A DNA stretch of 62,811 nt, the filler included, from Sphacelaria rigidula (lineage: Eukaryota): NCBI GenBank assembly GCA_964200075.2. It is 10 parts of 10 records of this genome, joined end to end, with 100 filler letters (N's around TTAATTAATTAA, not from the genome) between each part and the next. Parts side by side here need not be neighbours in the genome. Positions count along the whole stretch, not along the records: positions 50,330 to 56,520 come from CAXNAA020021626.1; 9 more parts are not named here. One strand, 5' to 3'. Position numbers and translations under genes: made by a program. Positions 4,080 through 62,811 of the stretch are shown here, one piece after another. The notes under the pieces are model-generated. The model made no database searches, was not told the DNA's origin, and saw nothing but the letters and a program-made list of their open reading frames with translations. Within the stretch, counting starts at the first letter, position 1. Every line of letters starts with the position of its first letter.

Positions 4080-4179
4080 GCCGCATATGCGTGAAGTTTC
4101 AGCATCATCAAACGCTAGTCGTGCCGCATATGCGTGAAGTTTCAGCATCATCAAACGCTAGTCGTGCCGCATATGCGTG
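4080..4179 (+). repeat. 43-bp exact tandem duplication
   Basis: GCCGCATATGCGTGAAGTTTCAGCATCATCAAACGCTAGTCGT about 2.3 copies. Confidence 0.9.
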
Positions 4180-6192: not shown

Positions 6193-6292
6193 NNNNNNNN
6201 NNNNNNNNNNNNNNNNNNNNNNNNNNNNNNNNNNNNTTAATTAATTAANNNNNNNNNNNNNNNNNNNNNNNNNNNNNNNNNNNNNNNNNNNN
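6193..6292. other. Artificial contig linker (44N-TTAATTAATTAA-44N); identical linkers at 12484-12583, 18775-18874, 25066-25165, 31357-31456, 37648-37747, 43939-44038, 50230-50329, 56521-56620
   Basis: Nine identical 100-nt spacers exactly 6291 nt apart; TTAATTAATTAA gives stops in all six frames. Intervening contigs are 6191 nt (first is 6192). Confidence 0.98.
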
Positions 6293-12455: not shown

Positions 12456-12583
12456 CTGTACACGTGAACGCAGAAGGGGGGGGNNNNNNNNNNNNNNNNN
12501 NNNNNNNNNNNNNNNNNNNNNNNNNNNTTAATTAATTAANNNNNNNNNNNNNNNNNNNNNNNNNNNNNNNNNNNNNNNNNNNN

Positions 12584-12650
12584 CCTGCTTTGTAGGGATG
12601 CGAGGTCAATGGTCTCATGACTATGGCATGCATGATCATGAGTACACCCT
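12584..12650 (+). mobile_element. LINE-like 3' end, subfamily B; others at about 8565-8650, 40986-41035 (+), 50160-50229 (-); related upstream part at 18875-18945 (-)
   Basis: Shared TTTGTAGGGATGCGAGGTCAATGGTC.CATGACTATGGCATGCATGATCATGAGTACA-poly(C). The 18875 copy encodes GDKICKRFLCNAWKKRNE, similar to the subfamily A translation. Confidence 0.65.
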
Positions 12651-18774: not shown

Positions 18775-19599
18775 NNNNNNNNNNNNNNNNNNNNNNNNNN
18801 NNNNNNNNNNNNNNNNNNTTAATTAATTAANNNNNNNNNNNNNNNNNNNNNNNNNNNNNNNNNNNNNNNNNNNNGTTCCTTCTGTAACTCATTACGTTTC
18901 TTCCATGCATTACACAAGAACCTCTTACATATCTTATCTCCGTCCGCAGGGGGGGGGGAGGGGAAAGCTGAATCTCTTCCACTTTTTCTTCTTTGGTCTA
19001 GATAAGACTCAGAATCACTGTCGCCCTTGGACCGTGTCTCTGCGTATAATTTTTCGATTAAAACAGTGCGGTGGGAAAGAAGAATTCCGATCTGATGAGC
19101 CGTGATTTCAGCTATCGTCAACATAAACTGCGATAGTTGAAATCACGACCTGTCAGATACGAGCTAATTCGATTCCACCGCACATTTTCGGCACTTGTAT
19201 GCTCAAATGGCTTCAAGTTCAGTTTATTATTATTTGCACACGACGGGCAGGGTGACAAACAGGAGAGCTCACAGGCTGCGTCTTATCGAGACCCAATAAA
19301 AGAAGCGTGACAGAGGACAATCGTTGAAAAGCAGTATTTTGATTAGTCGCCGTAACCATGGACCCGCCCGGCGGTCGATCAACATGCCGCCTTGAACGCT
19401 TGATCCCCTTCGCGCTTTTTTTTGGTGTCGAAAAGACACGGCCTCGCGCTTTCCGATGGAAAACACGCGGCTGAAAGAACCAAGAGGCACTTGACTCCCA
19501 TCTTGAAGACCACCACGCTGGATGCCACCCCTATACAGAACGATGCAAACCTCACACATTTTTTTCAAAAATCCAACGCAAGCCGCAGCGTAGACGACG

Positions 19600-21460: not shown

Positions 21461-24400
21461 CTAAAATTTTGGCTTCCCCGCCCCTTCCCCCCCCCCCCCC
21501 TTCACACACACACGCGAACGCACGCGCGTTTTTGCTCCTGTGCTAGGTTGGTTGGGGCACGCTTTTAAAGTGCGCCCACCTCTACCCCGAAGATGGCGGC
21601 TACAGTCCATCCCCGGATAAGATTATCACTGCCAGCACCATAGCCGGCCGGGCCACCAGCCAAAGAGCGGATGACAAGCCATCTTCACCCATGCTGACAC
21701 CTAAGACTAAAGTACCCACACCCATGCAGCTACCGGGCCCATCACCCGGATACAACTCGTCGGTATTCCGATACCCGCTACCGCAGTCACCGCCGACGGA
21801 TGGGGGTACTCCTCGATGGGTAACCAGTCGCCCTGGGTTGGCATCAGGCAAGTTTGGTGGTATTAGTACAATAGTTCTCCTTGTTGTCGTGATAGCAGCA
21901 GCGGCAGTTGTAGTGGTTCTAGTAGTTGAAACGGACATGCAATGTCTGTGCGAGAAGGAGTGCATGATCGCCCGATGAGTCTCATGCTTGGGTTCGCCGG
22001 CTTTTTGCTCCTGCTCTGCCGCCGGCGCTTGTGCGATCCCGCTTTAAGTGATGGTGGGGAAATAAATGGTCGCTGTACATGATGAAAGCAATGGTTGCAC
22101 AGTATGAGTCAAAATGAACAAGTTGCTGCGTGGTATGATTCGTGTGATGAAGAGAATCTCATGCTTAATGTTGACATCAATGTGCTTTGCCCCCCACCCC
22201 CTCCCAGGTAGGGGAACTACGAGTGTCGTTCGAATTGGGCGGTCCTTCCGAGGAGGCATGACCTGTTGTTCTCCGGATCGTGAAACGGTTTGCGAGCAGC
22301 AACGAACCGGTCCTGCATATTCGGGAGCAGGAGAGGGAACGGCGTCGCAAGAAGCGGAAGGCGGAGGAGACCCGGTTCCAGCCCTAGATTACGACGAATA
22401 CATAGATGATGAGCTCTTCCTAGATGATGACGGTACTACACAGTTCGACTCGGACGGTACTATACAGTTCAACTCGGACGGTTCCACCGCCGATGACATG
22501 GAGTCCTCCCTCATTTTTGAGTTGGAGATGTGAGGACCGGGGCGAATCGCACCGTGCAAGGCACGTACCTACCTTCTTTCGGTGGGACTGATGTGGGAGC
22601 GGTGTACCAGACGTTCCTTTGTCTGGTCCAGGGCGAGCGCTGAGGGACGGACCGACCTGATAACAGGAGAAGGGGGGAGGAGGTGTGTGCAGCGAGTAAC
22701 AGGAGGAGGGGGGGTGGGGTGTGTGCAGCGAGCTACCAGGCTACTCCCGTTTGCCTTGTTGACCGTGACCATGGGACGTGATGTTTGCCACTGGGGTACT
22801 TGCTGCGGGAGTATGAGAAGGCTGTGCAATACGAGGGTGCTGGAAGACCTCGTTGCAGCGAAGTGACGAGAATGTATATATAACTGTATAGCCGAACGAC
22901 CAATATGCTATAATGTTATATATGCATTCTCGTGCCTTTTTGTGATTGAAGTGGTGTTCGTTATCTCGAAGAACAGAATGAAGATGAGGAGGACAAGAAA
23001 AAATGTGTGCAAGAACGACAAAAAAACAGTAACAACGTCGTTCCGTTGCTTCGTTTCTAGATTTTATTTCTTCTTTTTTTTCGTTCGTCGCGTTTTTTTT
23101 TCTCTTTTTTTTTCCCCTCTCTTAGCAGTTTATTTTTTAGTCGTCAGTATTTGGTTTCTTGTATTTGACTTTAATGCCGTGGAGCCGGGAGCAATCGTAT
23201 AACTTAAGGAAATGGATTGAAGGGGTCGGATCTGGGGATAACACGGGGAGGGAGAGAACGAGGCTTGGTGTTACTAATAAAGGTACGGATTATGCACGGA
23301 TTGTGAACTCGTTCAAAACAGAGAAAGCGGGGCGGGGTGGGGCGGTACTTGTGTATCTGCACGCCAACATATTCACGATTATTCTGGTTTGTAACGCGAT
23401 ATCTTAAGAAGTTTTTTTTCGTGTAGATGTGGGTTTCTGGGTGTTCGAATGTGGTGACGGGGCCGACATACCTTTGTCTCCGTGCGGCGCTGCACCTGCA
23501 GCCGATAAGGACGTGGAGGGAAAGCGCTTGGGGGATGTACGAGGCACAACGGGCCGGAGAAACGTCGGTCCAATCTCACATGCACATAAAGCGGTGGGTC
23601 GCGGGCCCTGCATGGCCGCACACGATACGGGTATTATACAATTACTTGGATATTAGTACAGCGAATCGGACTTGTAGAACAAGTGATGTTAACCGCACTA
23701 TGGCGGGGACACCGCACTTTAGAAGACTGCACTTTGGTGGGACCCTCTCTGCTGTATCAAATCATCGATGGCAGGGCGCACTCAGCGTTGCGGACTGGGA
23801 ATAGACGGGACGAGGCGGTGGGAGAGAGGCGTCAGTGGCTCCAAAGGTGTTCTTCATGACGCACCCTGCCGGGTGTGCTATGCGCCGGTCCCCCCCCCCC
23901 CCCCCCCCCCCGGGGGCGGGGGTGTGGGGGGTTTTTCGTTTTTGTTGGGGGTGGGGGGGGGGGTGGTTTGTTGGGGGGGTGGGGGGGNNNNNNNNNNGGG
24001 GGGGGGGGGGGGGTGGGGTCCCAAAGGTGTTTTTTCTGCCCCCCCCCCCCGGGGGGGGTTTGCCCCGGGCCCCCCCCCCCCCCCCCCTCTCCCGGGCTGC
24101 GGTTGTGAGGCATGTATCGTTTCGTTGTGTGCTGTGAGGAGTGGTTCGATTAGTCGGAGGTTGGGGGGGAGCGGGTGGAGTTCTCTCGAGGTCGTTTTGG
24201 CTTATGAAGATTCGGCCGACCGCCTGCATGGTGACGGCATCCGCTCGTCATTCGGGAAGTAGGGGCGGGACGAGGGAGGAGAAACAGAAGGTGGAGAGTC
24301 GGCAGGCGTGTTCCGCGGTCATTTACCGGTCTCTCGTTGACCGCTGCGAACGTTTCATCGTCTTTCTCGACTTCGGGGTAGTAAGTATGCTTCAGCGTGT

Positions 24401-25000
24401 TTTGTTTTAGACAGCGGTACTTTTTCTTTACACTACAACTATAAAGGTATCTATCTATACATACGTATATATGCACATTCGCACGTGGTTGTACAAAGAT
24501 ATGAATGCTTTTTTTTTTTTTCCTTCGGGAGTTGGAACAAAAAATTGCGTCTTTCACGGTCTCATGATGGGTGATGTGTTCTTTTTGTGGGGTGTGTGTG
24601 CGTGTGGTCGAGCGAGAGCTGGGCGAGAGTTTTTTTTTCCTCTTGCTTGAAAGAGGGGAAGGGAAGATTCTGATGATGATGTAAACGTCAACGTTGTAAG
24701 GTGGCGAGTGCTCTGTTGAGATGGTTGCTGTGGCCGCACTCGATTTGTATGTCACGTGCATATTACCGTGTGTAATAGTTTTGTTCCGTGCAGTTTTATG
24801 TGCATGTGTACAATCTCGTGTTTTCTTCGTGCATAGATTTTTTGTCTTGGACTTTCAGGGATTTGGACACGGGCAAGTGTTTCGTAGAACGTGCAGGATG
24901 TTAGTGAAGTGCAGTGTGAGTGTGTGTGTGTGTGTGTTCTCGCTCTTCGATGTGTGTCTTCGTGTCTTGTATCCGTGTGTGCTTTTGTCGAAGGCTCGAC

Positions 25001-25044
<44 letters not shown>

Positions 25045-26635
25045 ACCACCGCCGCAGGCACAACANNNNNNNNNNNNNNNNNNNNNNNNNNNNNNNNNNN
25101 NNNNNNNNNTTAATTAATTAANNNNNNNNNNNNNNNNNNNNNNNNNNNNNNNNNNNNNNNNNNNNAAATTGATCGTGTAGGTGGCAGCTTTCATTAAGGC
25201 CACCGCTTCACCAGTTGGGCGCATTACTCCTCGAACTGTGGCGATGTCAAAATCGACGGGAAAGTCGATTGTTTCGGGTCTCACTCCGAATCCGATGTTA
25301 CACTGTGAATCTCACGAATGTAGTGTGAACAGTACACTACAGCCGCACGCGCCGCTTACAGCACGTATCCCCCCCCCCCCCCCCCTCACCCAATACCCCC
25401 TATTCGTCGTCACTTTTCCAAATAAGTCGCAGGTGGTGTTAAGCGTTCTCTCTTCAATAAAAAAAAATCAATACAGCAAGGGGTCACGATACATACATAT
25501 TTCTACACCCACGTACCCACTTTCTCCTTTTGGACCTCTCAGCCTCTCCAGGGCGGGGCGGGGGGGGGGGGGTAGGGTACCATTGTAGACCACCATCCTA
25601 TCCCCCCTCCCCCACACGCTATACAAAATCCTATATAAACCAATCCCATACTAAACCCAACACGGAATGAGGCGGCGTCGGAGGAGGCGAGGGGGTACAG
25701 CATATGATCCTTTGAGCTAGAAAAGTGCATCCCCTACCGTAGCATCACTCACGTACCCCCCCTGATACATTGGTGTAGAAAACTAAACAAGAAGTAACAT
25801 TAGAGTAACATTTTTTTGATTTATAGAAATAAATCAAATAAAAAGGAAAACTATAACATAGAATAAATGAATTGAATAAAACAAATACAACAAGGCCCAC
25901 TCTGATATGCCTTTTTGAGGGTGACGACGTTCACCACGGTTGTATCAGGCCATCACGGTAATGCACGGTAAATTCTGGATCGTTTCACTGAACACCCTGG
26001 TACTCATCGGTACAGGAACCAGCCCCCGTCGTAATGCGCGGTAATTCGTGGATGACAACAGGCCACCCTGGTACGCATATTGGAGCCAGCCACCACCCGA
26101 TCTTGATGGTGTCTTCGTGTCTATTCCTTCAGTTTGTGGCAACCTACGGCCTTAGCTTATGCCTACAGACATCCGAACAGCACGAAATCGTACGTGAACC
26201 CAAGGGGGGCCTGGTGTTTTCAAAACTCAGATAGATGCAAGCTTGGCCTACTATTATACTGAACACAGCTAGACTGGAGCAAGTATTTATTTTAGCACGT
26301 GTTTGATGAGAGGTCACGTGTAACAACGTTTTCGCGAGACTGAGAGTGAGAATCGGTCAATTAGTGAGTGAATTGTTTCAGTTCCGAAATGCCCCTCCAC
26401 GAGGCCCAAAATACTCTCCATTGTAGTAGCTTGCCAATAAAGCCCTTGATATCCCTGGGTAGGATATCGACGTGTAGTTGTAAGCACACGCCAGTGATGA
26501 GCAAATGAAAGCGCAGACGGAATGAGAAATTGGCTAAGTTAAAGCGAATGATCAAAGCCACTCTCAATCAGCGCTCTACTCTCAAATCTCTCGAAAACGG
26601 TTGTTTTGTGCAGCGAACACACGAATTATACAGAC

Positions 26636-31300: not shown

Positions 31301-34300
31301 GAGAAGTTTGTGGCGTGTAGATGAACACCTGTCGTGTAAACGGGTGCAGCGTTGTTNNNNNNNNNNNNNNNNNNNNNNNNNNNNNNNNNNNNNNNNNNNN
31401 TTAATTAATTAANNNNNNNNNNNNNNNNNNNNNNNNNNNNNNNNNNNNNNNNNNNNCGTGGTCAATGGTCGAACGCCTAAGGCAAGCAACAAACGAGTGC
31501 CCCCCCCCCCCCCCCCCCCCTCTTCGACGTCTGTTTTTCATCGGAGCAGGCCCACTACCGGTCGATGGCCGGCCCGAGGCAACGGTCATCACTTCGGGTA
31601 CACAATAACCGATTTTCTCGAGAATGAAGAGCGTGTACTCATGCGAAAGGTCCCGTTTATCGACATACAGTAAAGATCCAAAGTTTCCATCAGAGTGCGG
31701 TCATTCGGGTTGGAGAATCTACCGCACCCCGGGAGGACACCAACCGTATATCCAGTGAAGAGATCTTGTCAACCGCAAATCTTGTGTCGGCGTCTCCGCA
31801 GCAGTATTCGAGAAAATCGAGTATGAAACATTACACACCGATGAAAAAAACTTGACATAGCACCTACGGTAGCCTGACATCCATTCCTCGACTCACAGTA
31901 AACCTCGTTTAATGCAACAGTAAAATACTGTAGCGTAGCCAAACTGATGGTCGAGGCCGTAGTGCGCTGCTTTCAAGCGATTTTCTCAAGAAACTTAATT
32001 TCAAAGGCGACATAGCCTTTGTTCGAACGGCAAGTAATTTACGTCCATATACACTGCACAGTCATTCGTCGTTTTGTACGCAAGCCTACTTGATGGGTCC
32101 ACACCCTGGCCGATACAGCTCGACACACCCACATCACCTTAGCCATATCTGGAGGCACCAGGAGGTCGCACACGATGGGGTCATTGGGGTTTCTGATGCT
32201 CCTTGTCTTGAGCACCTGAGCCGCGATTCGCCTTCGCATCTCCTGGCTAACTCTCTGCAGAGCGTACGCCATGTGTTATCGAATGCCCACAGCAAAAACA
32301 ACCATATCCAGCAACCGTCAATTCAGAGGTGCCGGTTCAGGAAACGATAAAAAAAAAGGGCAGCACGGGTGAGCAGTAAAGACACAGACGTCAAGCCCCT
32401 TGGTTGCTAAGGCTTTGAGATCTTCGCTACACGTTCCTGCCCCCGACCGCCACGCGATTTGGAATGTTTGTCTCGCGGTAAGCTGACCACAACCACGACA
32501 CAACCAACGCACAGGAGAGAGTGATATGGCCTTCAGACTAGTCTGTGCTTCGTGTCAGTGGCGACGCAACCCACCCTTTAGGCAGTGACAGTGGGTCATG
32601 CCGACAGTGCTGACCTCCACGCAACCCCGCAGCTGCGGAGTTTTTGCCCCGCAGCGGGAACAAAATCGAACCCCGCAGCTGCAGACTTTTACCCGGGGTT
32701 GGGAACAAAATTTAACCCCGGAGCTGCGAGGGAGTAAGAATAATGCTAGATTACGGTAAATAACACCTGCCTACGATGCAAGTCTTAAACTCGAAAATTT
32801 CACACAGCACGGTCCAACTATACTACTTTTGGGGGAGAAAATAACGATCGGCACCGTTGGGATAAAATCTAGCGTGGAAGTTTGCGGCTAGTTCCCCCCC
32901 CCCCTGCAGCAGCGCACGCGTCTGACGTGTCGCTCGAAACGAAGTCCTCCATTAACCTCCATCCTGTGAGTAAATTGAAACGGTGCTCCATTTTTGCCGT
33001 GTGTACCTACAAAGCACGGTGCAACTGTCTGCCTCGCTTTTTTAGTACGGATCGAACCGAACGCAGTGTCTGCGGGCGGCAGACAGGCCCATGTTGTTGC
33101 CTTCAGCAGGATACTCCTAGCCTGGCCTAAACCTGACCCCAACGATCAAACCTGTGAAACCCCGAACGTGTCTCAAGGGCAAACAAAAAGCACTGCAAGG
33201 CGGTAACATGCTGTGCTGCGCAGTACAGGGGGCACGATCTTGAGGATACATGCTGCGGTGTGCGCCGCCAGAGAACCGATTGATATCCTCGACTCAAGGA
33301 TCACGTAGCGGTCGCCAGGTTTGGTGGTTGAAATGAATGATAGAGGGCGTCACAATCCCACCCACCAACATTTCATCGCTTCTGGTGTGTCTGCGAAGAA
33401 AAACTTGCGTTTGCCGTTTGAGTATCCTGTTCAGTCAGAACAAACAAAAAAAGTGCGGCTTGTTTCTTTCAGTACCATAACGGTGAGTGGATCTTCGGCC
33501 GCGCATCGAAGAGAGGGGCGGAAGTCCTTCCGCCAAAGAGTTGGCAGCGCAACAACAGATCAAGAGAAGCTCGCGCATCCACAGCAGTGCACTACCACCA
33601 GCGCATTCTGCAGGCAACATCAAGTACTGTGCGTGGTGTCGCACAAAAAGAATCGCTGTCGTCGCTATCAGCGAGGAGCATCGAACATTGCACGCTGACC
33701 GTACCGTCCACAGCCGTTCCGTTTTGGTCCGACAACAACAGATAGTCGAGGGTCAACCAACGGAGGCATCAAAACCCATTAGCAACGACCACAGGCTACA
33801 GGGTTGGAGATGGCACGTCATTAATTCTATTCCTGGGAAACCCAATCAACATATATTGAAATCGGTACGAGTGCAGTAGAACAGCAACAGTAGGTACCAA
33901 TCGCTGCCGCCCCAACATGGCGTATGTGAGATGTTGTGCGACTTCCCCCCCAAACCCTGGTCGGGTGCGGCATGATTCGGAGTACTGAATGTCGGTCAGG
34001 TGCTACGTGCGGTGACTGTTGTGACAATTACCTAAACTATGCAAGTACGCGTGCAGGATCGGTGTACTGTACTGTGAAAGAGACGCGGAAAGTAAAGAAA
34101 AACATGCGAAGTTGCGGTACACCCTGCACAGGGCACAAGAAGTTAAGGGGAGGGTAAGGTAGGGTGGGGGGAACGTCATTGTAGAGTACTGGAAAACACT
34201 CGGTTGTCCGCGGCACCATGCCGTAATTGAATTGAAACCCAAGCAATCACGGCTGCACCATTGTAATCTCGATGCGAGAGATACAGAACATGTATACTGA

Positions 34301-36840: not shown

Positions 36841-37747
36841 TTAACTCCTTGACACACGGCAAAATGGAGTCCATAATATCGATGGACGATTACATGCGTT
36901 GGGTTCTGCTAAAGACTACGCCCGCAGTCGGGTATTCCAAAATCCTCGTGGTAAAAATCTAGAACCCGCTTTGCCCCATACCAGAGCCGAGGGTTGTAAA
37001 AATTATGTCACGTACAAACCGTGGATTCGCACTTCCGCCTGTTTTCCCCAGGGAGATTTTGTTCGTCACTCGTATTGTAGCTGTGGTCGCTATTAATAAT
37101 TCAGGGCATTCACGTGAAAGGTATTTGGAAAATGATGATACCGTGCGGAATGACACTTGACTTCCGCGGGATCGCTGTGGTGCACGGTATTTGATACCTG
37201 CACAGTGCGTACAGACGATACGGGACCGGACGACGGTAGCAGCTCAGCTGCAAAATAAAATTATGGCGGTAATCGCGAGAATCGGAAACCACGGTACCCT
37301 GTCATGGATAATCGTGATAGTTGACATGCTGCACTCAATGAATGCGTTGCGACCCCGATACGACCCCGATAGCCATCTTGCAGGCACATAAAAGAACTGT
37401 GAAAAAATACGACGAAAATCAGGCGCCATGCGACACCGCTCAAGCGAAGGAAAGTGGATATGACCCGTTGCAGAAGACTCTCTCAAACCCCCATCTTAGC
37501 CACCGATATGGCGCCCTTCGCAATCTCCACCTCGTTTCCACATTTCAGCACCTTTAGGTGCCTATCCGTGGGATTGAGCAATGGCCTAGAAAAGTATAAC
37601 TTATCGTTTTCGGCCCAAGAAAGGTACGAAAAATGGCCAGAAACGCGNNNNNNNNNNNNNNNNNNNNNNNNNNNNNNNNNNNNNNNNNNNNTTAATTAAT
37701 TAANNNNNNNNNNNNNNNNNNNNNNNNNNNNNNNNNNNNNNNNNNNN

Positions 37748-40370: not shown

Positions 40371-41399
40371 TTGCGCCGATCCATCGCGCACTGGTACGAT
40401 CATCAAAGAGCACGCCAGGACTAACCCTAACTCTAACCCTAACCATAGGGATGTTCAAATTCCGATGCGGTCGTCTAAGCACGCGGTCCTCTCACGCATT
40501 GCAGGGAGATGAATCTCTCGTGAACCCGGTGAGTTGTTACGTACGATTTTTTCAATATAAATTTAAAGTGGGTGCAGCGTTCGCCGTTATCATGTTATTA
40601 CTGTATATCGTTCGCTGCTATCATTATGACAAAGAGGTATATATCAGATAAACAAGTTTGCGTTTCGAAGCGTTTCGAATAACAATTGAAGTCGTTGGTT
40701 GGGCATAAAACCGTATTAATACACTGTATATTACTACATGCTCTTCCTGCTCACACTCCGGAGGTCGAACAAGTTTCCTTTACACCGAGAATCGAGTTTG
40801 AGTCCTTGCTCGGGATCCCCCCCCCCCCCCCCCACGGCGCCGCACCGAGCGTGAATAAACAAAGCAAAGAGACGCACGTAAACCCACNNNNNNNNNNCTC
40901 CTCCCCCCGCGCGCCAACAAGTTTCCTTCTCCCCAAAAAACGACTTTGGGTCCGTGCCCGGGCCCCCCCCCCCCCCCCCCCCCTTTAATGGTCATATGAC
41001 TATGGCAAGCATGATCACGAGTACACCCCCCCCCCTTTAAACGTTGCTCTTTTAGAACACCGCTTTTCGACACCATTGTGTTTGTTTTTTGCCATGCTGT
41101 GTTGTTCTTTTTTTTAATACTTCGACACAAATTGCATAAAAAAATATAGCGCCGACACTTGATCTCGGGTCTAAGTTTATTACGGGGCACTCGATACCAT
41201 TCCTCACACTCTTCATTTTTTACAATCACACAGTAACGGGCCACTCTCGCTCACGTATTCTTCACCGTCTCCCCGCCGACCCTCCTGCCAAAACCAGCGC
41301 CGAACCTTTCATGCTTCTCGAACAATGATTTTAAACAACAAAACACGAGGATTTGGCTGTTTATTATTCGTCAGCCGTGACGAGCTAAAAAGGACCGCT

Positions 41400-42066: not shown

Positions 42067-42230
42067 TGTCCTAAAAGGCTCTTGTTTAATGTGTGGAAGA
42101 AGTGTATTGAGCGCCCAAATGTTGGAGATGTCTCTTTTAAAAGTAGAAGCGGTGCTCCATCTCGAAAGGGATGCGTGGTCAATGAGCAAATGGCTGAGGT
42201 GAGCAACAAAATCATTTCTGTCCCCCCTCA
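42067..42230 (+). mobile_element. 3' end of a LINE-like retroelement, subfamily A (longest copy); others at about 3887-3943, 6293-6387, 31457-31520, 44039-44088 (+) and 56453-56520 (-)
   Basis: Shared GGGATGCGTGGTCAATGGTCAAA(C/T)GACTAAGGCAAGCAACAAATGAGTACG-poly(C). Copies share the 3' end and vary at the 5' end. Reads KRLLFNVWKK...RKGCVVNEQMAEVSNK, like an ORF2 C-terminus. Confidence 0.7.
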
Positions 42231-43299
42231 CCCCCCCTACCCCCCGCCGGTCCCCCGCCTGCACCGCAACTCGTCCCATGGAGCTTCACAAGTCAGGTAA
42301 GATAGCGTAGCCTACCTTCAGTGACGTCATTACTTAGGTTATCATCCCCATTGCTGGTTCGGGGTGACAGCTGCAGATCATTCGGGTCTGGAGGAGGCAG
42401 GGCGCCGGTTTCCCTAGCCCACTTGACTTGAGTAGCAACCTGAGGAGTATGACACAGTATAGATGCTGTGAAATCGCGCGAGTAGTACACTGCTGGAGTA
42501 TGACAAGATGGTAGCAGTTGCGCTGATTCTTAAAAGAGACGAAAAAGTACGAGTAGTACTTCCTACTGGAGTGTGACCCAGTGGTAGTGGGCGAAGCGAT
42601 TCTTGAATGATGTAAGAAAGAGCAATTAGTTCAATGCTAGAGTGTAAGGCAGAGGTTGGTTGCTGCACGGATTCCGACGATGTGTAAATACTAAACTGGA
42701 ATATGACAACAAAGTAGTGGTTGTACCGGATGTGAAGAGATAAAAACGGCAACGTGCTTCTACCTGCCGGGTCTTTCCGCATGACGCAACGGGTATAATT
42801 GCTGCAGTAGAACTCATTTGCACGGATAATTCAAGTGAAGGGGTTTTCAATCGTTCACTTGAACCCCAGACGGTTTTCCTTTTTCTATTTGGTGAGATAC
42901 AATGTTCATGCGAATCGTCTTGCGGTAAAGATTCTGATATTTTCCCTCTGGAAATAGAACGGGGCAACTCGAGGTCAAATGAGAGGTATTTCAAGATATC
43001 AAACACGCCTTCAACCTCGTCCGTTCGACACATTCGGGATCTATATTGCAGAGTGGGACATACTAGCTATCTGTGCACACGACGAAACAAAACGTTCACC
43101 ACGGGATATGACGCTCAAAATATATCATTCTTAGGGGTGTAATCATGTTGGTAGTTTGAGTTCAATGTTTTCTCTCTGTGCCTTGCTTGATGCTTGACGT
43201 TGTCACGCCAATCTTCTTGTCTGCTAGTCGACACCGAGCGTCAAACATTCGACATTGGCAGTGAACAAACGTATATCAGCGACACAACAACACGAACGC

Positions 43300-43330
43300 C
43301 ATCATCAACAGCAGCAGCATCAACAGCAGC

Positions 43331-43370
<40 letters not shown>

Positions 43371-43392
43371 GCGGCGGCGGCAACAGCAACAA
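43300..43392. repeat. (CAA/CAG)n microsatellite
   Basis: Direct reading. Confidence 0.92.
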
Positions 43393-43454
43393 ACATCGGG
43401 GAGCCTTGCATTACCGTGTCACCTCTACCTGGAATATCATATTCATCGTGGGCA

Positions 43455-43812: not shown

Positions 43813-44392
43813 GATACGTTGGGTTTTTTCTTCGTAATGTATAATTTCCCCCGTGGAAAGCGTGAGAACGTGAGTAAACAAAATAGTCGACTGGGTTTGT
43901 GTGACGTGAGTTGACGCGGTGCAGGAGGGGTGACCCAANNNNNNNNNNNNNNNNNNNNNNNNNNNNNNNNNNNNNNNNNNNNTTAATTAATTAANNNNNN
44001 NNNNNNNNNNNNNNNNNNNNNNNNNNNNNNNNNNNNNNGGTCAATGGTCAAATGACTAAGGCAAGCAACAAATGAGTACGCCCCCCCCTCTCGTAGGACG
44101 ACTCCTCTCTACTGCTTTGCCACAGGGGGGGAAGCAGCATACAAACCGCGTACCCCTCCTGATACGTGGGTGAAAAAATAAAGTTCGAATGAGATACAAA
44201 AAGAAAAGAAAGAAAATAAAAGAGAAAATGAGAGAGAAAAAAATGAAATTGAATGAAGAAGATAAACAGAAGGAAACGAACTCCACTGAAAAAAACTATC
44301 ATCGAAAAAAGAGAAAATATGTGAAGAGAAGTTGAAATAAATGCAGTGAATATAACAAAGAGTGAAAATACATGGGCTAATAAAGAAAAACC

Positions 44393-49450: not shown

Positions 49451-50165
49451 CCCTCAGACAGCAAGCGTTCCCTCGCAACAGTTTTACAGGCTGACAGTCC
49501 GGAGGGGGATTTCAGTGGCCGGGGGCGGGGCGTGGGGGAGGGGCTCTGTCTGCGGAGCAGCCGCAAAGCTCACCAAGTCAACAATGTGTCTGTGGAAGTT
49601 TCTCGCGGAAGATCCTAAGCCAGAAGCGAGGCCCGACAGGCGCGAAATGGTCATTCTGACCAATCACGGTCGCCAAAATGAGCACGTAGCTCCCTCTACA
49701 GGTGGACTACTTCGCTTTCTACTGACATATTTCATTTGGGTCAAGGTAATTCAACTAGAGATTACACGGTTACAAATAACTCGTTTCATATTCTGCTCGA
49801 GGTCTGTCCCGCCTGTCTGGCGCCTCATGTGTTGCCAGCATAGCTTCACACTGTCTGTAGTGTTGTTGTTTAACACTAAGCAGACGGCATCAGCAGCATG
49901 CAGTAAATTGTGCCCAGTCTGGAGCAATGGCGCACTTATGCTGTCTCTCGCCGGTGTATCCAGCGAAGACAAACAGCACACATGCATGCTGACTCTGCGC
50001 GCAATTGACTGCAGGGTCAACTCTGGCCAGGAGTTCCCGGGGACTATTTCCTGAATAGATGCCAAATATTCACGTGTTCATGGAAAAGGCGTTTTGTGTC
50101 GCAAGAAACGAGCTAATCTGAATCCCAAATGTGGCATAGTTCAACATAGTTCACCTGCGGGGGGA
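49451..50165. mobile_element. Second, inverted copy of the piggyBac-like element, lacking the 36160-36500 insert
   Basis: Starts TCAA|CCCTCAGACAGCAAGCG; shares CATTCTGACCAATCACGG, TGCTCGAGGTC and CCCAAATGTGGCATAGT blocks (reverse complement); ends where a LINE-like 3' end begins. Confidence 0.75.
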
Positions 50166-51486
50166 GGGGGGGTGTACTCATGATCATGCATGCCATAGTC
50201 ATGCGACCATTGACCTCGCATCCCTACAANNNNNNNNNNNNNNNNNNNNNNNNNNNNNNNNNNNNNNNNNNNNTTAATTAATTAANNNNNNNNNNNNNNN
50301 NNNNNNNNNNNNNNNNNNNNNNNNNNNNNGCCGAAAAGACCCTCCCCACGCCGTACCGACAAGACTGGTCATGGCCTTCGTCGGAGGACGGGGAACGGAG
50401 GTTTTACAGGTACGGGTTTATTTTCATAGTACAAACACTTATTTCAAGTATTTTTACTTTAATAATTGTCCTGTCCCTCTACGTTTTAGAGTACATTTCA
50501 TAGTACAAACTTGATTTTAGTATAGGTTCCGTTACACATGGTTTTGCCGGTCTTCTGGTGCTCGCAGCCGCGGTGCAGCACCGTGCGGAGGTGGGGTGAT
50601 ATCCAAGACTAAGGCAGTCTCACAAGCGGCGCTCTGTCTATTGGTTTTCCGGGTAGTGTACCCAACGTGCGCTATGAGTGTCGCCATGCCCGCGGTATGG
50701 TTGCGGTGGCCTGGGTTGATGTTGCAGTCACCATTATTTGCGCTTAGGTTGCTACTGCATCTGCACGGCCTTGGATACGGCGGACGATTCAAGATGGCTC
50801 CATCGTCGTCGTTGTGGGATGTTTCATGTTACTCGGACGGAACATAAACCGAGAAAAAGACTCCACACGCATCAATGCTGCTGGCCCCCTTTTGTGGGCT
50901 GTCGTGTTGTTGTTCTGGATGACTCGCGTTGATCGATGCCGTATAGACATGCATGGCAATCAAGCACGGTGCCAACTGGCTGGCCAGCGCTGGCGGATCT
51001 TCTTGCGATACAGATACAGTCGGTATCGCGACAGAAATTTGTTGCGGTACAACGCTGGAGACAACCAAGCGCTCTACACACAGGACATCAGACAGCCAAC
51101 GCAATAATGTATCTCTCTCGTGTATACGATTCCGTGTGCTAGAATGCCGCTTCCTTTCGAAGGTGTACGCTTCGCTTACTTTGACATGGTGCCATCTTGG
51201 TGTGTATCAGAATATTATCGATGCTGGCTGCACTTCTTTTTCTTCCCAGCTCTCCTCCTCCTGCTGTCCTGGGCTATAGCAAGCCAACGGAGGAAATTGA
51301 AGTCCAGAACAGGCCCGGACGACAAATAACCGAACAGTGCAATCTTGTTGACCTCTCTGTGGCAATTAGGGTTTGAGTAACGCACGTGTCCAGCGATAAT
51401 CCCGACAAGAATGATGGAAAACAACGAAAAAATCGATGATTTCAGTTTAACTATTTCATAGCGACCCGTACCTATGAACTCAGTGC

Positions 51487-51620
51487 CGACGAGACAGCGA
51501 TGATGAACAGCTTGGTGGGGAATGCGGAGCTTGTGCGCAAGCTGTTGCGATAAGCGCATGAGTCGGACGAGACAGCGATGATGAACAGCTTGGTGGGGAG
51601 TGCGGAGCTTGTGCGCAAGT
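51487..51620. repeat. Tandem duplication of a 52-nt unit just downstream of the transposase-like exons
   Basis: GACGAGACAGCGATGATGAACAGCTTGGTGGG.A.TGCGGAGCTTGTGCGCAAG twice. Confidence 0.85.
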
Positions 51621-51792
51621 GGCCCGGTAAGACCCGTGAGAGAACATTGAACGTAGCGGTCAAGGATACGAACCAACGATGGCGTTGCTCGAAGCAATAC
51701 AGATAGTTCCTTTGACCTTTACATGTGTTCGGCATCCGACATTGCTTCATTACTACTGTACTGTACTGTGCAGACGAGGCGCCCTCGCTTAC

Positions 51793-53280
51793 CTTCTTGC
51801 TTCTCATACACAAATATGTAACCTCTCTGTGAGGCATGTGTTGGCCGCTAGTGTAGGCGATGTGATCGAGAAACGCCACAATGCCCTCGTATCGGTTGCC
51901 TGGGTACACCCCGTCAGTCGTCCTGTTGCAGCACGCTATAATGCAGAAGAAGGGGGGTTGGGGCAGACGGGGGTGAGGGAGAAGCGGCGGGATGCTGTCC
52001 TTGGCACCGCGATGCGGGGATGCGGGTTGGATGTCGGTGCAATATGTTGAACTCATGTCAAACGTGAGTTGAACATGAGCTCAACTCACGCTACAATAAC
52101 AGTGCGCCCAAGATATTACACTGAGTCTTGCGTATGCCGCAGTAGTTGCGTATTTCTGTGCGTGCCTGCATGCAGCCATCATAAATGGGACGACGTGCTT
52201 CCAGCTTACTGGAAACCGCCCCCTTGTCTGCTGCTAGAAATGAGCATCGCGCCGCAAAATAGGCATATCTAACTTAAAATATAAGTCACGACCCCAGCTA
52301 ATGGGCAATAATTAAATACACTCCGATCATGGGCTACGGTAACCGCCTCCGTGCTCGGTGCAGATCTCATAGAACTCGGACAGACATGGTACGGCATACC
52401 TGTTCATTACCGCCGGAGAGCGTGGATTCCTCTTTGCTGATTCGATGGTATTGTGCGACAGGCCAACAGCCATCCTGAAGAACGCGTTGAACACCATATG
52501 TTTCCCCGCCAGCATAGATCCACCGTTTTGGGGAAATTTTACTAGCGGCACCTGCAGGTGCACCCAATCGAGCCGAGCTCGGCATGACCTCAGCTTGGCA
52601 AAATCGCTTTGCTCCGCACGCAGCACGACGACATCATGGGCGCTGCGCGCAAAAGCGTCAACACACCTAAGAGTTGTGCAGCACTGAAAGGACCTCTGTA
52701 CCATATCCGACACATCCGTAGTCGCCGGCCATTTTGTGCGCTTTGAAACGCAAGGGATGGATCGGCTCCCTGATTGTCGGCCTTGACTGCCCAGATGTAG
52801 GGTGCTGTTGCACGAGCCGCCTGGAGACTGGGCTGCGGTGTTTGGGCTGATGGGCTGGAGGGGATGTGGGCTCAATCCGGTGGGAGTGCGGACGTCACCA
52901 CCTCCAGGTGGGGGTATGTTCGGCCGTGGACGTCCACGTTGGGCGGTCACCACCTGGCTTTCCACGTACGCGCTCATCTCGCGGGACTGCGAGGGGAGAG
53001 TTACCCGCTGTGAGCGGATAGGGGGTAGTTTACAAACTGATTCTTGCTCTGGACTTGTATCGTCCCCAACGTACCGAAGGCTGCCGGCGGCGTTTCTCGT
53101 ATGGCTTTTACCAACGGTGGGATAAGCCTTCTGAATCTCCGCCGAATGTTTGCTCATGGTGGATGGTATGGCATCATTCCAATCGACGGTTCTTGTGATC
53201 GCATACAGTCGCATCGCGCTAACTTTCTGATGTGAGTTTTCAATTCCGCTTTCGTGTTCTGATTTATACTGCTCGCACAT
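51793..53280 (-). CDS. Spliced gene resembling the N-terminal region of Sola/DUF7869-type DNA transposases (exons about 53280-52400 and 51922-51793); truncated
   Basis: Longest ORF in the window (317 aa). Donor AACAG|GTATGC joins in phase to acceptor CAACAG|G, then AAG|GTAAGC. Pattern CC.TLRCVDAF...AGKHMVFNAFFRMAVGLS...IVAFLDHIAYTSGQHMPHREVTYL resembles the CC..C..F / G..VC..F....G+S / G+.MPH....+L series recalled for that family. No catalytic domain seen. Confidence 0.5.
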
Positions 53281-53556
53281 TCCTCCGTCCCCGAACGGCT
53301 CTGTACACGCATCCGCGGGTAATTACCGCGCAAAAAAGAACGTTGCGAAGGCGCGTTCTACACAGCAGCGATGTGAACGAACGGTTGGCCATATAAACTT
53401 CTCTTCACATATGAAATAATCGTGCGTGCACACTACAATCAGTTTACCCGTAGCGATATGCCACTGGCACTCGGCACCAATTAGGGAGGAAAATACGCGT
53501 TGTCCGCAGTACGAATTGGAGCACTACTGACAGAGCTGCATCTTCCGACGGCTGCA

Positions 53557-55542
53557 ATGGAGCGACCACCCCGTTCAGGGGCATCCGATCGCCGCGATCG
53601 AACCGCCTCCCCCCTCGCTGCCCACGTCCAACAAAAAGGCACGCTCCCCGCCCTGCCCCCCCCCTGCCCTCTACTCGAATTGGTCAACTCAAACCGCCGG
53701 CGATTAATCACATCCACTGCCGCCGGTGAAATGTCTGGGCCCGCGCCTCGAAGGTTAGACGAAAGCGAGGGGGGAACCCTCGCGAACAGCCTCACGCAAA
53801 ACTTCATCGACTGCTTCGAGGTGCCTCTGAGCCAGATAAGGCTGACCGCGTTCACGCGCCCAATTAACGACAGAGGTCTCGACGTGATGGTAAGTCCATC
53901 ACGGAGAACGGATGGCTCCGTCACGCCGCGCCCGCGCTTGTGGTGCAGAGGGAAGGACTGCCGAACCGCGGATTCACTGAAGACTGCACCCTGTCAATAG
54001 TTCATATAGTACTCGACGGTAACCATCGACTCGCGGCGGCCAAGAAGATCATGAGCAGAGACACGAGACTACGCTGCCGGGTTCACTACGCGTTCGACGC
54101 CGCCGCTATGAGAGTATTGGGCGACTGTGAGTTGCCGCGCGCCTATGTTCGTGCTTGTTGTGTACCCGCCAAAGTCGCCACGATCCAAAGACGTCAGGCG
54201 ACCCACGTTTTCTGTTTCTCAATTAACCTCCGTCTCTGTGTCGCCCCGCTTGTGACGTACAGCAATATTGCCCGTCGTGAGTCGTTTGTCTCATGTTTTT
54301 AAAGTTGAAATCGTGTATGAGTCGAGGTATGCATGCCACGTGTAGACGTAGTCGCGAGTCCCCTGCACCATATTGAGGTGCCCAGCATCTGAGCACCGCA
54401 GGCGTGTGTGTCACATACCTAAGCACAGCCGTCTGTGCAAGTATCACTCATACGACTTCTTTATTTTAGGACATGAATCTCTTGAGGTCGCCCTCGATTG
54501 CCATACCACTAGCTGACGTTTCCCCGGCCCTTCTCATACCTCCCCCCCCACCACCCCCCCTTCCCCTACCTGCATTTGCTCCTTCTGCTGTAATGTTCGT
54601 ATGCCCTCGGCAGCACTCAATGATGCCACGGAGACCATAACCGCGCGGACAACGTATGACACTTTATATCTCCACGCCGAGAACATGAAGGGCATCAAGA
54701 AGAGGAACAAAAAGACGAACGTAACCGCGCAGGAGATGGCCAAAGCTTACCGGACGGTGCGTTCACACGTGATACAAGTGCTGCACTCAGTACATACCCG
54801 GTTGCCCTGAATCCCTCCGTTTTTTTTTCATTTTTTTGTCATGTTTCATTATTTTGCCCTTTTTAGCACGTATCGTTCCATTTTTCTTGTTGTCGAGTGT
54901 CCACTCCTTCCAGTGCTTTGCTTGTGTAATCTTCTATCCCTTTTTCCGACGTCTTGGTCTGTTAAGTCGTCCAGATCGAATTTTTTTGTTCTATCCCCTG
55001 TGCAAGATACGTCTATCATGTCACCACGGCTGAATCCGGGGGGGATTACTTTGCGTGCGGCCATCAGGGAATCAATCGATCAAACAAACACCCCGCTCCT
55101 GATCGCGTGATCTTTGAGCAGTGTTGACGGCAACTTCTTTCGTGCCCGAAATCCTTCCCGCTTGAAATGAGGCGGACGCTTCAGCGCCGCAGCCCGTTTG
55201 ATTCCATGACGCCACGGTGATGGTCGGGTACAGAAATGTTCGCATGATTCACACATACATCCTCCTGTCCGCACGATGCCTTGAATTCCTTTTTGCCACG
55301 GACGTGGGAAACCCACAGGCGGGAATCAATCCACCCAGCGTTCAGACGCTCCGAATCTGGAAGAAGGTAGTGTGTGGTCTATCCCAGGAAGCATTTGAAG
55401 CAGTCCGCGACGTCTTCCAGAGTGCGGAATAAAATACCAACGCCAAGCATGCGTCGCTGAATTTTTTTACACACAAAAACTTCACGACGTTGAAGGCGGA
55501 CGACCCGACGGCCCAAGCTCTGGCCGTGCATATCATGGCGAG
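53557..55542 (+). CDS. Spliced ParB/Srx-domain protein with HTH-like segment; exons about 53557 (or 53731)-53889, 53949-54126, 54614-54756, 55319-55542; in-frame TAA at 55430-55432 (premature or true end)
   Basis: Splice sites ATG|GTAAGT, GCAG|, T|GTGAGT, GCAG|, ACG|GTGCGT, ACAG| are phase-compatible (0,1,0). Joined protein: EVPLSQIRLTAFTRPINDRGLDVMREGLPNRGFTEDCTLSIVHIVLDGNHRLAAAKK...LRCRV...RVLGDSLNDATE...TAQEMAKAYRTAGINPPSVQTLRIWKK. DGNHRLAA matches the ParB/Srx core DGxHR motif. Confidence 0.78.
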
Positions 55543-57754
55543 GTGTGAACCCAGATACATATTGATGCAGCACTTAGACTTTAGTTTCGTATGCGCGTTT
55601 TTTGCTTGAAATTAAGCTCCTCACACTCTTTTTATAAGCTTTTTATTATTTCTTTAAGCCCCACGTAAGGTTTTTGAGCGCAAATTAGGCGCGCTTTATG
55701 CGCCTGATTCCCGTCCTTGTTGTGGTGTTGTGGTAGTACCCCTTCACGAGGCGCATCTTCTAGCACAAGGACAAGACGACTAGTTGGGCATTCAAAGTTT
55801 TGATGCTCATTTTAAATTGAAAAACAAAGCTTTTCATCAGTCATCAGGTTTGAAGGCCACAACCTGCACACCTACACCCTAGCCCACGTACAGAAACAAC
55901 AAATGAGTGCTACTACACTTATGATACATGATGCAGCAGTAGGGCATTGTAGCCTGTAGACACGGGGCATTGCAGCTGTTGGCCTCTCGCCTGGCAAGCT
56001 ACAAGCTACCAACTTTCCCCCCCATCATCTACCGTCGGTCGACATTGAAAATCTTGTCGAACTACGTGAACCGGCTGTACGCTGTACAAGTGTACTACTG
56101 ACTACAGTAGCCTCAGTCACATTTTTGAAAAGAACATAGAACAGCAAATTGTGCGAATTGAGGTTCAACTCTGAGATGAGGTTCAAGTGGGCAACCCGAC
56201 TTGCCAATTATTTGTAGTAGAAGTACCGAGAACAAGCTCTTATTCGGAAGAAGTAACCTGTGGAGGTGAACCCGTAACGCGTCATATTCAGTACGTCGAA
56301 GAACCGAGAGAAGTAAGTCGGGTGAGCACTCTTGTTACTCTACACCACAGGGAAAAGGGTGGCAGCGCACGGATCCCACGTCTTGCGCTAAGCCCCCCCC
56401 CTCGAGCTGCGCCAGCGCGAGGAACAACACCTCGATCGTGCCCGACAGGGTTGGGGGGGGGGGGCGTACTCATTTGTTGCTTGCCTTAGTCGTTTGACCA
56501 TTGACCACGCATCCCTTTCGNNNNNNNNNNNNNNNNNNNNNNNNNNNNNNNNNNNNNNNNNNNNTTAATTAATTAANNNNNNNNNNNNNNNNNNNNNNNN
56601 NNNNNNNNNNNNNNNNNNNNTACCTACGCGTTCCAACAGCTTGGTAAAAAGTACAGCACTTTTGGCCATCTCGTGGAACTCTTGCCGTTTCTCTTCCTTC
56701 TCTAGTTCATCGATTCTCCATTTCTACATCTTCATGCAGGAGGGTGGAGGCTGCTCTTTCGGAATGTGATTCGTGTATATGTGCCGCCCTGATGACGCGT
56801 TCAGTACATGCAGTGATGGTACAGTCCAGAGAAATGATTGAGTGGAAGGGAGTATGACTCCCTGTGGTTGCTTTGCTGTTGGTCGGTGTCGTGCTTTGTC
56901 GGCGTTCTTCAGTCGCTACGGTCTGCGATTGCCGCATCCGCGGCTAAGAGGTTCTTCAGTATGCATGTTCCTACCCGACGGCTGCAACCGCGGCACTGAC
57001 CACCAGTAGTAAATCGCCCCAGAAACATAATTACTGGCGGCCCGCTACTGTGGAGCAGTTTGTCTCCTTTCACCAGCTTCTACAAACAGCGCGGCGGCCG
57101 AGTGCTCGAATCTTTCTCATGTGCTGTGGGCTGCGGAGATTGCTGTGTTCGACGCAAGCGTACAGCAGCGGCAGCAGTACCTCCCGATTCGCATGACAAC
57201 AACGAAGCGGCAGTATTCACTTTAATAGGTAGCCCTGAATTCGAAGCTCCGATCGCAAAGTGTCATGTCTCGCACACCCAGCGGCTCGCCGGTTGCCGAA
57301 GCCACTTCCGCACCCACCAACAGAGCTCCACGGAATCAAAGTAGACTACGGATGTGGATATGGATACGCCCGTTATCTGAATTATCGCGTTCGATTGATG
57401 CCTCGACTACCGCTGCATCTGATGCAGAAGCATAACCGTCCGCACGACCCCTCAAACACTACGCTGCACCTTGCTCTTCACCCTCGACAACAAGCAACAG
57501 GGCAAAGTACGGTTTCAGGCGCACCACCATTTTCGCGGGCGACAGAGACAGCATCCTCCATCGTTGCGGGCTTTGCGCACCCGGCCCCTCGCCCGCTGCC
57601 CTGCGCACGGTTACGAAGAAGGCGGCAACCAGGCAGCACCGATGCGTTCTGCGGCGGCGATAGCACGGGGTCTCTCACCAACATCAGCAGCTTTGGTCGG
57701 GGTTGGGCAGCAGAGAGGCGGCCGCTGCGGGCGGCCCGAGTAGGAATTGTGTCG

Positions 57755-62470: not shown

Positions 62471-62711
62471 TCTACGTTCAGGGCGCCCTGAGTCGAAGAT
62501 GAGTTTGCAGGGGTCACCGGGTCGTTAATGTTTTCGTTGAAGCATTATGTTACGCGCGTCATTGTTGTCGTAGGCTCTCCCTTGCCCTCTTACCATGCAA
62601 GTCAATGTTGTTTTGCCTGAATATTCCGCTGTCTCTGTGCAACATGTAGTGCATGGAGTGAGTGCTGAGGAGTGCAGCGGTCGCTAGTTTTTCTTCGTGC
62701 ATGCACCCATA

Positions 62712-62740
62712 TCAGCAACAACAGCAGCAGCAGCAACAAT

Positions 62741-62811
<71 letters not shown>
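62712..62811. repeat. (CAA/CAG)n microsatellite at the window end
   Basis: Direct reading. Confidence 0.95.

Follow-up and report, generated by a model that had tools for sequence, protein, structure and literature searches.

The ParB/Srx fold is best known from the cytidine triphosphate (CTP)-switch DNA clamps of bacteria, from nucleoside triphosphatases of defence systems and from sulfiredoxin (Srx), a protein of this fold that has long been known in eukaryotes. Canonical ParB proteins are described by the GERRxR motif and the ENLQR-type box, and the cysteine in the FG/SGCHR signature of sulfiredoxin is catalytic. We analysed a ParB-like gene within a 62,811 nt stretch of DNA from the brown alga Sphacelaria rigidula (assembly GCA_964200075.2), referred to as the window, to which all coordinates apply. 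The locus, on the plus strand from nt 53731 to approximately nt 55542, is likely to be a decayed, most probably non-functional member of a nuclear gene family that exists in multiple copies in brown algae, its frame being broken by the loss of a single base within the ParB/Srx core and interrupted again by an in-frame stop codon.

The homology between ParB and sulfiredoxin, and the FG/SGCHR signature of the latter, are given in passages of PMC4619093, which also place a D-G-x-H/Q-R pentapeptide on the ParB/Srx fold in DGQHR/DndB and GmrSD_N proteins. Parts of the recent literature on mobile elements describe ParB-like domains in eukaryotes as enzyme fusions: the Ectocarpus transposon Sola1-1_Ec32 carries an accessory gene for ParB plus a DNA methyltransferase (PMC12477816), and the Plavaka elements of red algae carry PAG3, which joins ParB to a 2-oxoglutarate (2OG) oxygenase (bioRxiv 10.1101/2025.02.11.637652). 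Fusions of ParB and a helix-turn-helix (HTH) domain with Dam are mentioned for chlorophytes and chytrids in a section of PMC4738411. In fungi, the relevant part of PMC9156397 names DUF3723 as a conserved cargo gene of giant transposons and lists its function as unknown.

The family to which the Sphacelaria locus belongs shares some features with each of these groups. Its best structural matches are the CTP-binding ParB proteins (Spo0J/ParB, Noc, KorB and PadC; Z 9.6–11.3, root-mean-square deviation (rmsd) 2.0–2.6 Å, ~90 residues) and, as in ParB, an N-terminal ParB/Srx domain is followed by a helical, possibly DNA-binding module. Unlike ParB, the family carries the motif DGNHR instead of GERRxR, has conserved N-D/E-A-T-E after an intron (in the window copy the string LGDSLN takes the place of the ENLQR-type box), shows only 9–20% identity in structural alignments and is encoded by eukaryotic, intron-bearing, multi-copy genes; its central module matches the HTH domain of ParB no better than it matches other HTHs. 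The nearest curated sequence models, all below their cut-offs, are those of the DGQHR-domain proteins (DndB/DpdB; TIGR03187, PF14072) and of GmrSD_N/DUF262 (PF03235). Compared with the former, the family has N in place of Q and lacks the Q of the "QR pair" (T/V/C/A-R is found upstream); compared with the latter, it has DGNHR where GmrSD_N has DGQQR; and it differs from both in being without a defence-system context and in having eukaryotic hosts. Sulfiredoxin has the same minimal fold (Z 7.0–9.1) and an H-R pair is present in both signature motifs, but in the family Asn occupies the position of the Srx cysteine in 70 of 96 members, no observed variant has Cys there, and Srx is a single-domain enzyme without the helical C-terminal modules. 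The accessory proteins of algal transposons likewise have ParB-like domains and are nuclear-encoded in algae, in one case in a brown alga, but going by the portions of their descriptions that deal with them they are enzyme fusions, whereas the longest members of the family (454 and 593 aa) have no methyltransferase, oxygenase or other Pfam domain. Phage ParB-like families (phrog_1033, phrog_4715, phrog_2159 and phrog_3264) gave weak per-protein scores (E 0.34 for the window fragment), and DUF3723 (PF12520) of the fungal Starships is a faint lead (3/96 members at E ≤ 1, Atlas feature score 0.90). By sequence the family is nearest to the D-G-x-H/Q-R group (DndB/DGQHR, GmrS) and by structure to the N domains of ParB; it lacks defining features of each group compared, and forms a new branch of the ParB/Srx superfamily that is eukaryotic and has introns.

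Results

The only genomic context available for the gene is one piece of the window, nt 50330–56520 (CAXNAA020021626.1). Four stop-to-stop open reading frames (ORFs) in differing frames cover the plus strand between nt 53485 and 55432 (53485..54000, 53868..54302, 54517..54810 and 55202..55432). The original prediction, made from the sequence alone, had called these ORFs unrelated and had spliced four exons out of them to obtain a ParB/Spo0J-like protein. The ORFs sit where that prediction placed them, the pieces 53731–53889, 53949–54126, 54614–54756 and 55319–55432 have GT..AG borders, and their in-frame join (594 nt, 197 codons plus TAA) contains every amino acid string that was quoted. The ORFs are not unrelated, however, but pieces of one gene that continues past the proposed end at nt 55432. 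A profile of four full-length relatives gave colinear matches to the window ORFs (E 0.15, 6e-16, 3.4e-11, 1.8e-07 and 0.028), and the match is therefore beyond chance.

A search with exon 2 among 5.8 billion proteins returned one longer protein, P0001, which is an "unnamed protein product, partial" of S. rigidula with 81% identity. When P0001 was aligned to the window (tblastn), residues 71–147 matched nt 53686–53892 (58% identity) and residues 148–225 matched nt 53892–54125 in the next frame (79%). The two alignments share base 53892, as is characteristic of a single lost base, and P0001 runs without a gap through the 59 nt stretch (nt 53890–53948) that had been taken as the first intron. All ten relatives in a separate alignment (A3) are also continuous over this stretch, with invariant S, G and W; the G of the GW motif is conserved in at least 90% of the 96-member family alignment (A1), and in structural models the stretch corresponds to the last part of helix 1 together with strand 2. 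Because all relatives read through it, nt 53890–53948 is conserved coding sequence and not an intron. Loss of the base at 53891/53892 (site nt 53890–53894) has by chance produced a perfect look-alike of a splice donor (G|GTAAGT) which, together with a CAG 59 nt downstream, gives a false intron that keeps the reading frame.

The base loss was compared with contigs from four public sequencing runs (X1, X3, X4 and X5). In X1 (53862–55351) and X3 (53706–53891 and 53862–53941) the site is covered by contigs without any difference from the window, so that the one-nucleotide loss is real at this locus in these samples. In all four runs there are also contigs, 90–95% alike to the window, that carry an extra C behind nt 53891, which restores the frame. 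The site (T-A) is not a homopolymer. No splice joints were found in the gene among the contigs of the four runs.

Read in this way, the gene begins with coding segment A (nt 53731–53891, frame 1), supported by the P0001 alignment and by profile positions 23–57, which contains the ATG and encodes strand 1 (VPLSQI) and the beginning of helix 1. Beyond the frameshift, coding segment B (nt 53892–54126, frame 2; P0001 residues 148–225, profile E 6e-16) supplies the rest of the ParB/Srx core, namely KSITENGW, strand 2, the DGNHR helix and the LRCRV strand, and includes almost all of the supposed first intron; it is 40% identical to residues 60–138 of P0008 (tblastn). The DGNHR motif lies at nt 54015–54029, and its G, H and R are each conserved in at least 90% of alignment A1. 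Intron 2 (nt 54127–54613, 487 nt, GTGAGT..CAG, phase 1) is recognised from its splice borders and from how relatives read at the junction. It is followed by exon 3 (nt 54614–54756, profile E 3.4e-11), which specifies a long helix (NDATE..R..YD..Y) and the first of the two candidate HTH helices, and aligns to P0008, P0099, P0077 and P0053. Intron 3 (nt 54757–55318, 562 nt, GTGCGT..CAG, phase 0) has the same junction as the spliced relatives P0099, P0077 and P0008. Exon 4 (nt 55319–55542), delimited by alignments that cross the stop codon, specifies the second helix of the candidate HTH (..W.KV) and further helices, and is directly followed by a potential donor (AG|GTGTGA) at nt 55543.

At the position of intron 2, six of the 96 members (the spliced gene models P0008, P0099, P0077, P0049, P0053 and P0066) have exon-3-like sequence after the aligned G/A-D, while 71 members, mostly ORF calls on short contigs, have [GCRS][EK] after the aligned D, as would result from reading into X|GT(G/A)AG. 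Nine members end at this point and ten read otherwise. Introns 2 and 3 of the predicted structure are supported by the spliced brown-algal relatives, and of the four-exon arrangement originally proposed it is these two that stand, the first being frameshifted coding sequence.

Exon 4 contains an in-frame TAA at nt 55430–55432. Single high-scoring segment pairs (HSPs) with P0099 (E 2.8e-08), P0008 (6.8e-06) and P0115 (8.1e-07) each cross it and extend to nt 55543, and since three relatives align past it the stop codon is probably premature. No variant is listed at the TAA in contigs of X1, X3 or X4. A profile search of nt 55607–56520 for downstream exons gave nothing colinear past profile position 262; as the piece ends at nt 56520, the lack of 3' exons does not indicate a truncation. 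With the frameshift in the core and the TAA that relatives cross, neither the 197 amino acid (aa) product that had been implied nor a protein like those of the family could be made from the window copy.

HMMER searches with P0001 over 1.84 billion representative sequences gave 97 proteins at E ≤ 1e-3, of which 29 were at E ≤ 1e-10, and the family comprises at least 97 clusters at 50% identity. Twenty clusters were looked up and five carried species names (two S. rigidula, two Pylaiella littoralis and one Ectocarpus sp. CCAP 1310/34); two further proteins, both from Ectocarpus sp. 12 AP-2014, were found with the C-terminal portion of P0099 as the query. P0001, P0115 and P0116 are brown-algal proteins, the remaining clusters are unnamed Logan or ENA records, and all named relatives come from Sphacelaria, Pylaiella or Ectocarpus. 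Every family record is labelled "unnamed protein product", and no description of the family was found in literature on ParB in brown algae, DUF3723, DGQHR or the accessory genes of algal transposons. A word-index search with exon 3 found no match, and pattern scans with P0001 and A3 of metagenome, viral and prokaryotic contigs, which were of limited sensitivity, found no relative.

A tree was built within the family only, from 86 rows consisting of the A1 members of at least 110 aa and the window copy (with XX at the frame break); eleven of the 96 A1 rows were shorter and were left out. The window copy and P0001 are sisters (support 100/93; 74% identity over 130 columns), with end branches of 0.32 and 0.15, respectively. 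Many similar copies of the exons exist. Contigs that are only 90–95% like the window account for 106/145 in X1, 105/150 in X3, 112/158 in X4 and 32/40 in X5, and in X1 the summed contig depth, which is not a copy number, was 552–1355 in exon bins, 28.7 in intron 2 and 19.4 at nt 55375–55516. That the exons are shared more widely than the introns fits a conserved gene family, and equally a transposon lineage with a selected protein.

The 90%-identity cluster of P0066, from Pylaiella littoralis, holds 24 mostly partial proteins in which ParB-like fragments are mixed with the unrelated-looking P0126, P0130 and P0132. A single larger repeated unit may have been annotated here as several genes; as the cluster includes proteins that do not look ParB-like, no copy number is drawn from it.

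Structures were modelled from family alignments (AlphaFold2) for two relatives, the Sphacelaria protein P0008 (301 aa) and the Ectocarpus protein P0116 (359 aa). The mean predicted local distance difference test (pLDDT) score was 74.9 for P0008, with 88–98 over residues 20–140, and 70.9 for P0116, with 87–98 over residues 1–100 and 79–91 over residues 121–180. All nine Foldseek matches in the PDB with E ≤ 0.001 were to ParB, Noc, sulfiredoxin or PadC. VIA-align returned B. subtilis ParB-CDP (6sdk_A; Z 11.1, rmsd 2.3 Å, 94 residues) for P0008 and M. xanthus ParB (7bnr_A; Z 11.3, rmsd 2.1 Å, 90 residues) for P0116, and the first 30–32 rows of both lists consisted of ParB, Noc, KorB, PadC, pNOB8 ParB, sulfiredoxin, SerK, SbnI and two structural-genomics proteins. 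In an exhaustive search of 48,161 chains, four reached Z ≥ 8 and eleven Z ≥ 5, the top eight all being of ParB/Srx type. A ParB/Srx fold for the N-terminal domain of the family, as modelled on these two proteins, is well supported and bears out the ParB-like fold that had been proposed. By extension the fold would apply to the window copy, because it is 40–80% identical to modelled or close relatives, and the frame of the window copy itself breaks inside this fold. The motif is DGNHR and not GERRxR, as had been noticed, and is exact in 70 of the 96 members.

The other structural claim of the original prediction, that the strings TAQEMAKAY and SVQTLRIWKK form an HTH, fared less evenly. They do fall on two helices of a small helical module (residues 149–158 and 166–177 in P0116), in which the W and the basic residue after it are conserved in the five spliced members examined. 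The match to DNA-binding domains is consistent in kind but weak: residues 108–199 of P0116 resembled winged-helix (WH)/HTH domains (Cdt1 WH, PadR, Reb1, Rap1 and MarR) at Z 4–5.6, and its central helices resembled the HTHs of TetR proteins at Z 2.8–4.0, both below the specific range. Identification of the module as an HTH is plausible from the models. When residues 1–200 of P0116 were predicted as a two-copy homodimer, one control scored higher.

The longest family members, P0099 (454 aa) and P0115 (593 aa), continue beyond the HTH-like module with ~200 helical residues and a basic/acidic tail. This helical C-terminal part had no Pfam match at E ≤ 10, and no methyltransferase was matched in Pfam at the same threshold in P0099, P0115 or P0116. 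ParB-like domains are known in fusion with DNA methyltransferases, and a lost C-terminal methyltransferase had been suggested for this locus; examination of the C-terminal domains of intact paralogs does not support the suggestion, the longest relatives having none. The PHROGs model phrog_498 ("DNA methyltransferase") matched 9/96 members, and in the one alignment viewed (P0099 residues 65–155) it covered the ParB-like part. The present family is a different form from the enzyme-fused ParB-like proteins of algae, without an enzyme domain.

No Pfam or NCBIfam model reached its cut-off with the window pieces, P0001 or the 96 members. Pfam gave only chance-level matches to the window pieces and P0001, and NCBIfam gave no match to the 86 aa window fragment or P0001. 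Among the 96 members, a Pfam scan at E ≤ 1 (listed are the 25 families with most members, of 29) gave sub-threshold matches to DUF1015 (9 members), GmrSD_N (8, best E 0.0036), DndB (4, best 0.02), DUF3723 (3, best 0.061), DUF6551 (2) and ddrB-ParB (2); most of the matched families presumably belong to one ParB-like clan. The matches listed for the 96 members do not include ParB_N (PF02195), which was also absent for the window pieces. Below cut-off, the NCBIfam models TIGR03187 (DGQHR) and DGQHR_dnd_1 matched 14/96 (best 0.0089) and 7/96 members, respectively. The PHROGs annotated as "ParB-like partition protein" matched 23/96 (phrog_1033, best E 4e-05) and 6/96 (phrog_4715, best 5.1e-06), and in PADLOC the PD-Lambda-5_A models matched up to 7/96 (best 1e-04). 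A Lin-15B-like match to a single exon (E 0.012) was rejected, as it did not reach its cut-off and the families listed from the scan of the 96 members do not include it. Sequence searches of the PDB with P0001 and with the A1 profile gave nothing significant; a phycocyanin match (E 0.04) rests on a shared DGN-R string.

Discussion

Intact members of the family would have a variable, low-complexity N-terminus followed by the ParB/Srx-fold domain with its DGNHR motif, then a long helix and the small, intron-split, helical HTH-like module, to which the longest members would add the helical C-terminal region of ~200 residues. DGNHR appears to lie where the superfamily has its phosphate-binding motif, and the domain may bind a nucleoside triphosphate (NTP) through the H and R of this motif, as in sulfiredoxin, SerK, DndB-type proteins and ParB, while the helical module may bind DNA. 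By analogy with the superfamily, the combined product could be a nuclear, NTP-dependent DNA-binding protein. In the window copy, the base missing at 53891/53892 would shift the frame in the ParB/Srx core and the TAA at nt 55430 would end what follows; the splicing that had been proposed would conceal the first of these lesions by deleting a core strand and the conserved GW.

A DNA transposon origin, in which the family would be an accessory gene and the locus a dead copy of the element, is compatible with decay of a family member and is possible, if on the unlikely side. The family is indeed present in many copies with decayed members, and ParB-like accessory genes are reported for the Ectocarpus Sola1 element in part of PMC12477816 and for red-algal Plavaka in part of bioRxiv 10.1101/2025.02.11.637652. 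The Ectocarpus protein P0072 (CCAP 1310/34), a lead only, joins a DUF4371/hAT-transposase-like part to the ParB-like domain: upstream of that domain, residues ~60–258 resemble the DUF4371 and FAM200-ZBED5 RNase-like structures (Atlas template modelling (TM) score 0.44–0.53), with no match in Pfam. Similarity to the P0001 locus also reaches ~0.8 kb upstream of the ATG (nt 52761–52907, E 1.6e-04), where the window aligns to residues 26–69 of P0001, its predicted N-terminus, with 51% identity and an in-frame stop; either the duplicated unit exceeds the coding region or the first exon of P0001 was mispredicted. Within the window, however, none of the 105 ORFs of at least 110 aa has a Pfam match, the part of P0072 that is not ParB-like and the cluster-mates P0126, P0130, P0132 and P0135 have no further match, and no paralogues or transposase were found. 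Of 66 inverted-repeat pairs, the 25 longest include no pair that flanks the gene within nt 50330–56520. The pattern of depth, with intron 2 and nt 55375–55516 at single-copy level and the exons multi-copy at ≥90% identity, fits a gene family equally well.

Alternatively, the gene could be intact in the organism, the missing base and the TAA being assembly errors or strain polymorphism. This is improbable. In X4 the sole contig across nt 53891 does have the extra C (depth 79.8 of 79.8), but contigs built independently from X1 and X3 match the window exactly at a site that is not a homopolymer, the TAA is without variant in the covering contigs of X1, X3 and X4, and contigs in which the extra C is present show 7–10 additional differences from the window per ~110–140 nt, which makes them look like paralogues. 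Even less probable is the intact four-exon gene as first proposed, with a spliced 59 nt first intron and a 197 aa ParB-like/HTH protein. The GT..AG borders of its three introns, the in-frame join and the perfect first donor (G|GTAAGT) make an attractive model, but those 59 nt encode a segment kept by every relative, so that splicing removes a near-invariant GW and a strand; the remaining two introns are much longer (487 and 562 nt), and relatives continue across the TAA at which the model ends. Bacterial or phage DNA, whether through contamination or recent horizontal transfer, is hardly credible, for while sequence and fold both place ParB-like proteins of prokaryotes and phages nearest to the family, the introns are conserved and of spliceosomal type, all named relatives are brown algae (in agreement with the original view of a eukaryotic gene), the viral, prokaryotic and metagenome contig scans, within their limited sensitivity, gave no relative, and identity to ParBs of the PDB is 9–20% in structural alignments.

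Several points weigh against reading the locus as a decayed copy of such a family. The contigs that confirm the one-nucleotide loss may come from the strain that was used for the assembly, and X4 is the only run from a second study, so that its extra-C contig could represent an intact allele and not a paralogue. The part after the TAA scores modestly by itself (profile E 0.028), and the Pylaiella gene model P0077 ends near the same point. The splice sites are predicted from genomic DNA and protein relatives, and the depths that indicate many copies are sums over contigs and not copy numbers. The fold was modelled on relatives (P0008 is 40% identical to the window copy, the P0099/P0116 lineage ~30%), and the 86 aa window fragment itself stays below threshold in Pfam, NCBIfam and PHROGs, with a Lin-15B-like match at E 0.025 and a ParB-like phrog at E 0.34. 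Finally, binding of NTP by the ParB/Srx domain and of DNA by the helical module are both inferred from the superfamily.

Taking the locus as a decayed copy, its family may be considered more widely. We tentatively propose, as a rather doubtful idea, that this large, lineage-specific, intron-bearing family of nuclear ParB/Srx-plus-HTH proteins of brown algae comprises nucleotide-gated DNA-binding switches, which would be either accessory proteins of giant transposons that bind and mark their own element, lacking the enzyme domain that is fused to ParB in Sola1 and Plavaka, or host factors recruited from such elements. If true, the ParB-type NTP switch would be in use in the nuclei of eukaryotes; and if the family is real and active, a lineage of multicellular eukaryotes would have taken up NTP-gated DNA binding of the ParB type and expanded it greatly. 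The family may have a connection with the giant transposons that algae are now being found to carry. The window locus alone is a case of ordinary decay and of little interest, and the family is of mild interest. For annotation there is a lesson in the way a one-nucleotide deletion built a perfect donor look-alike, so that an in-frame "spliced" model masked a pseudogene.

Other features of the window

The window is a mosaic of ten pieces of 6191–6192 nt joined by spacers (N44-TTAATTAATTAA-N44) that recur every 6291 nt and have stops in all frames (nt 6193–6292, 12484–12583, 18775–18874, 25066–25165, 31357–31456, 37648–37747, 43939–44038, 50230–50329 and 56521–56620); as the window is a mosaic, any finding that crosses a spacer, or that relies on neighbours on its far side, would be an artefact. 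Two segments near the gene are high-copy repeats with no other copy in the window. One lies in intron 3 (nt 54949–55090), where depth was 2575–5124 against a baseline of ~29–31, and the other lies downstream of the gene (nt 55517–55700); over both segments and in three runs, summed depth was 590–5124 against a baseline of ~20–30. Many partial joints occur at nt 55603–55672.

A dispersed repeat of ~50–110 nt, with a core of GGTCAATGGTC..GGCAAGCA followed by a C-run, was found at nt 3880–3944, 6321–6385, 8589–8653, 12587–12651, 31457–31518, 40987–41035, 42132–42210 and 44039–44088, and on the minus strand at nt 50163–50229 and 56449–56520. It looks MITE-like (miniature inverted-repeat transposable element), and stands directly at six piece ends, as if the contigs had broken within it, a frequent situation at contig ends. 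Long poly-C/poly-G and C-rich tracts are dispersed over the pieces, with 39 copies in a repeat family (D1), for example at nt 24994–25057, 23872–23921, 40944–40983 and 53645–53692, and CAA/CAG microsatellites are present at nt 43267–43419 and 62686–62805.

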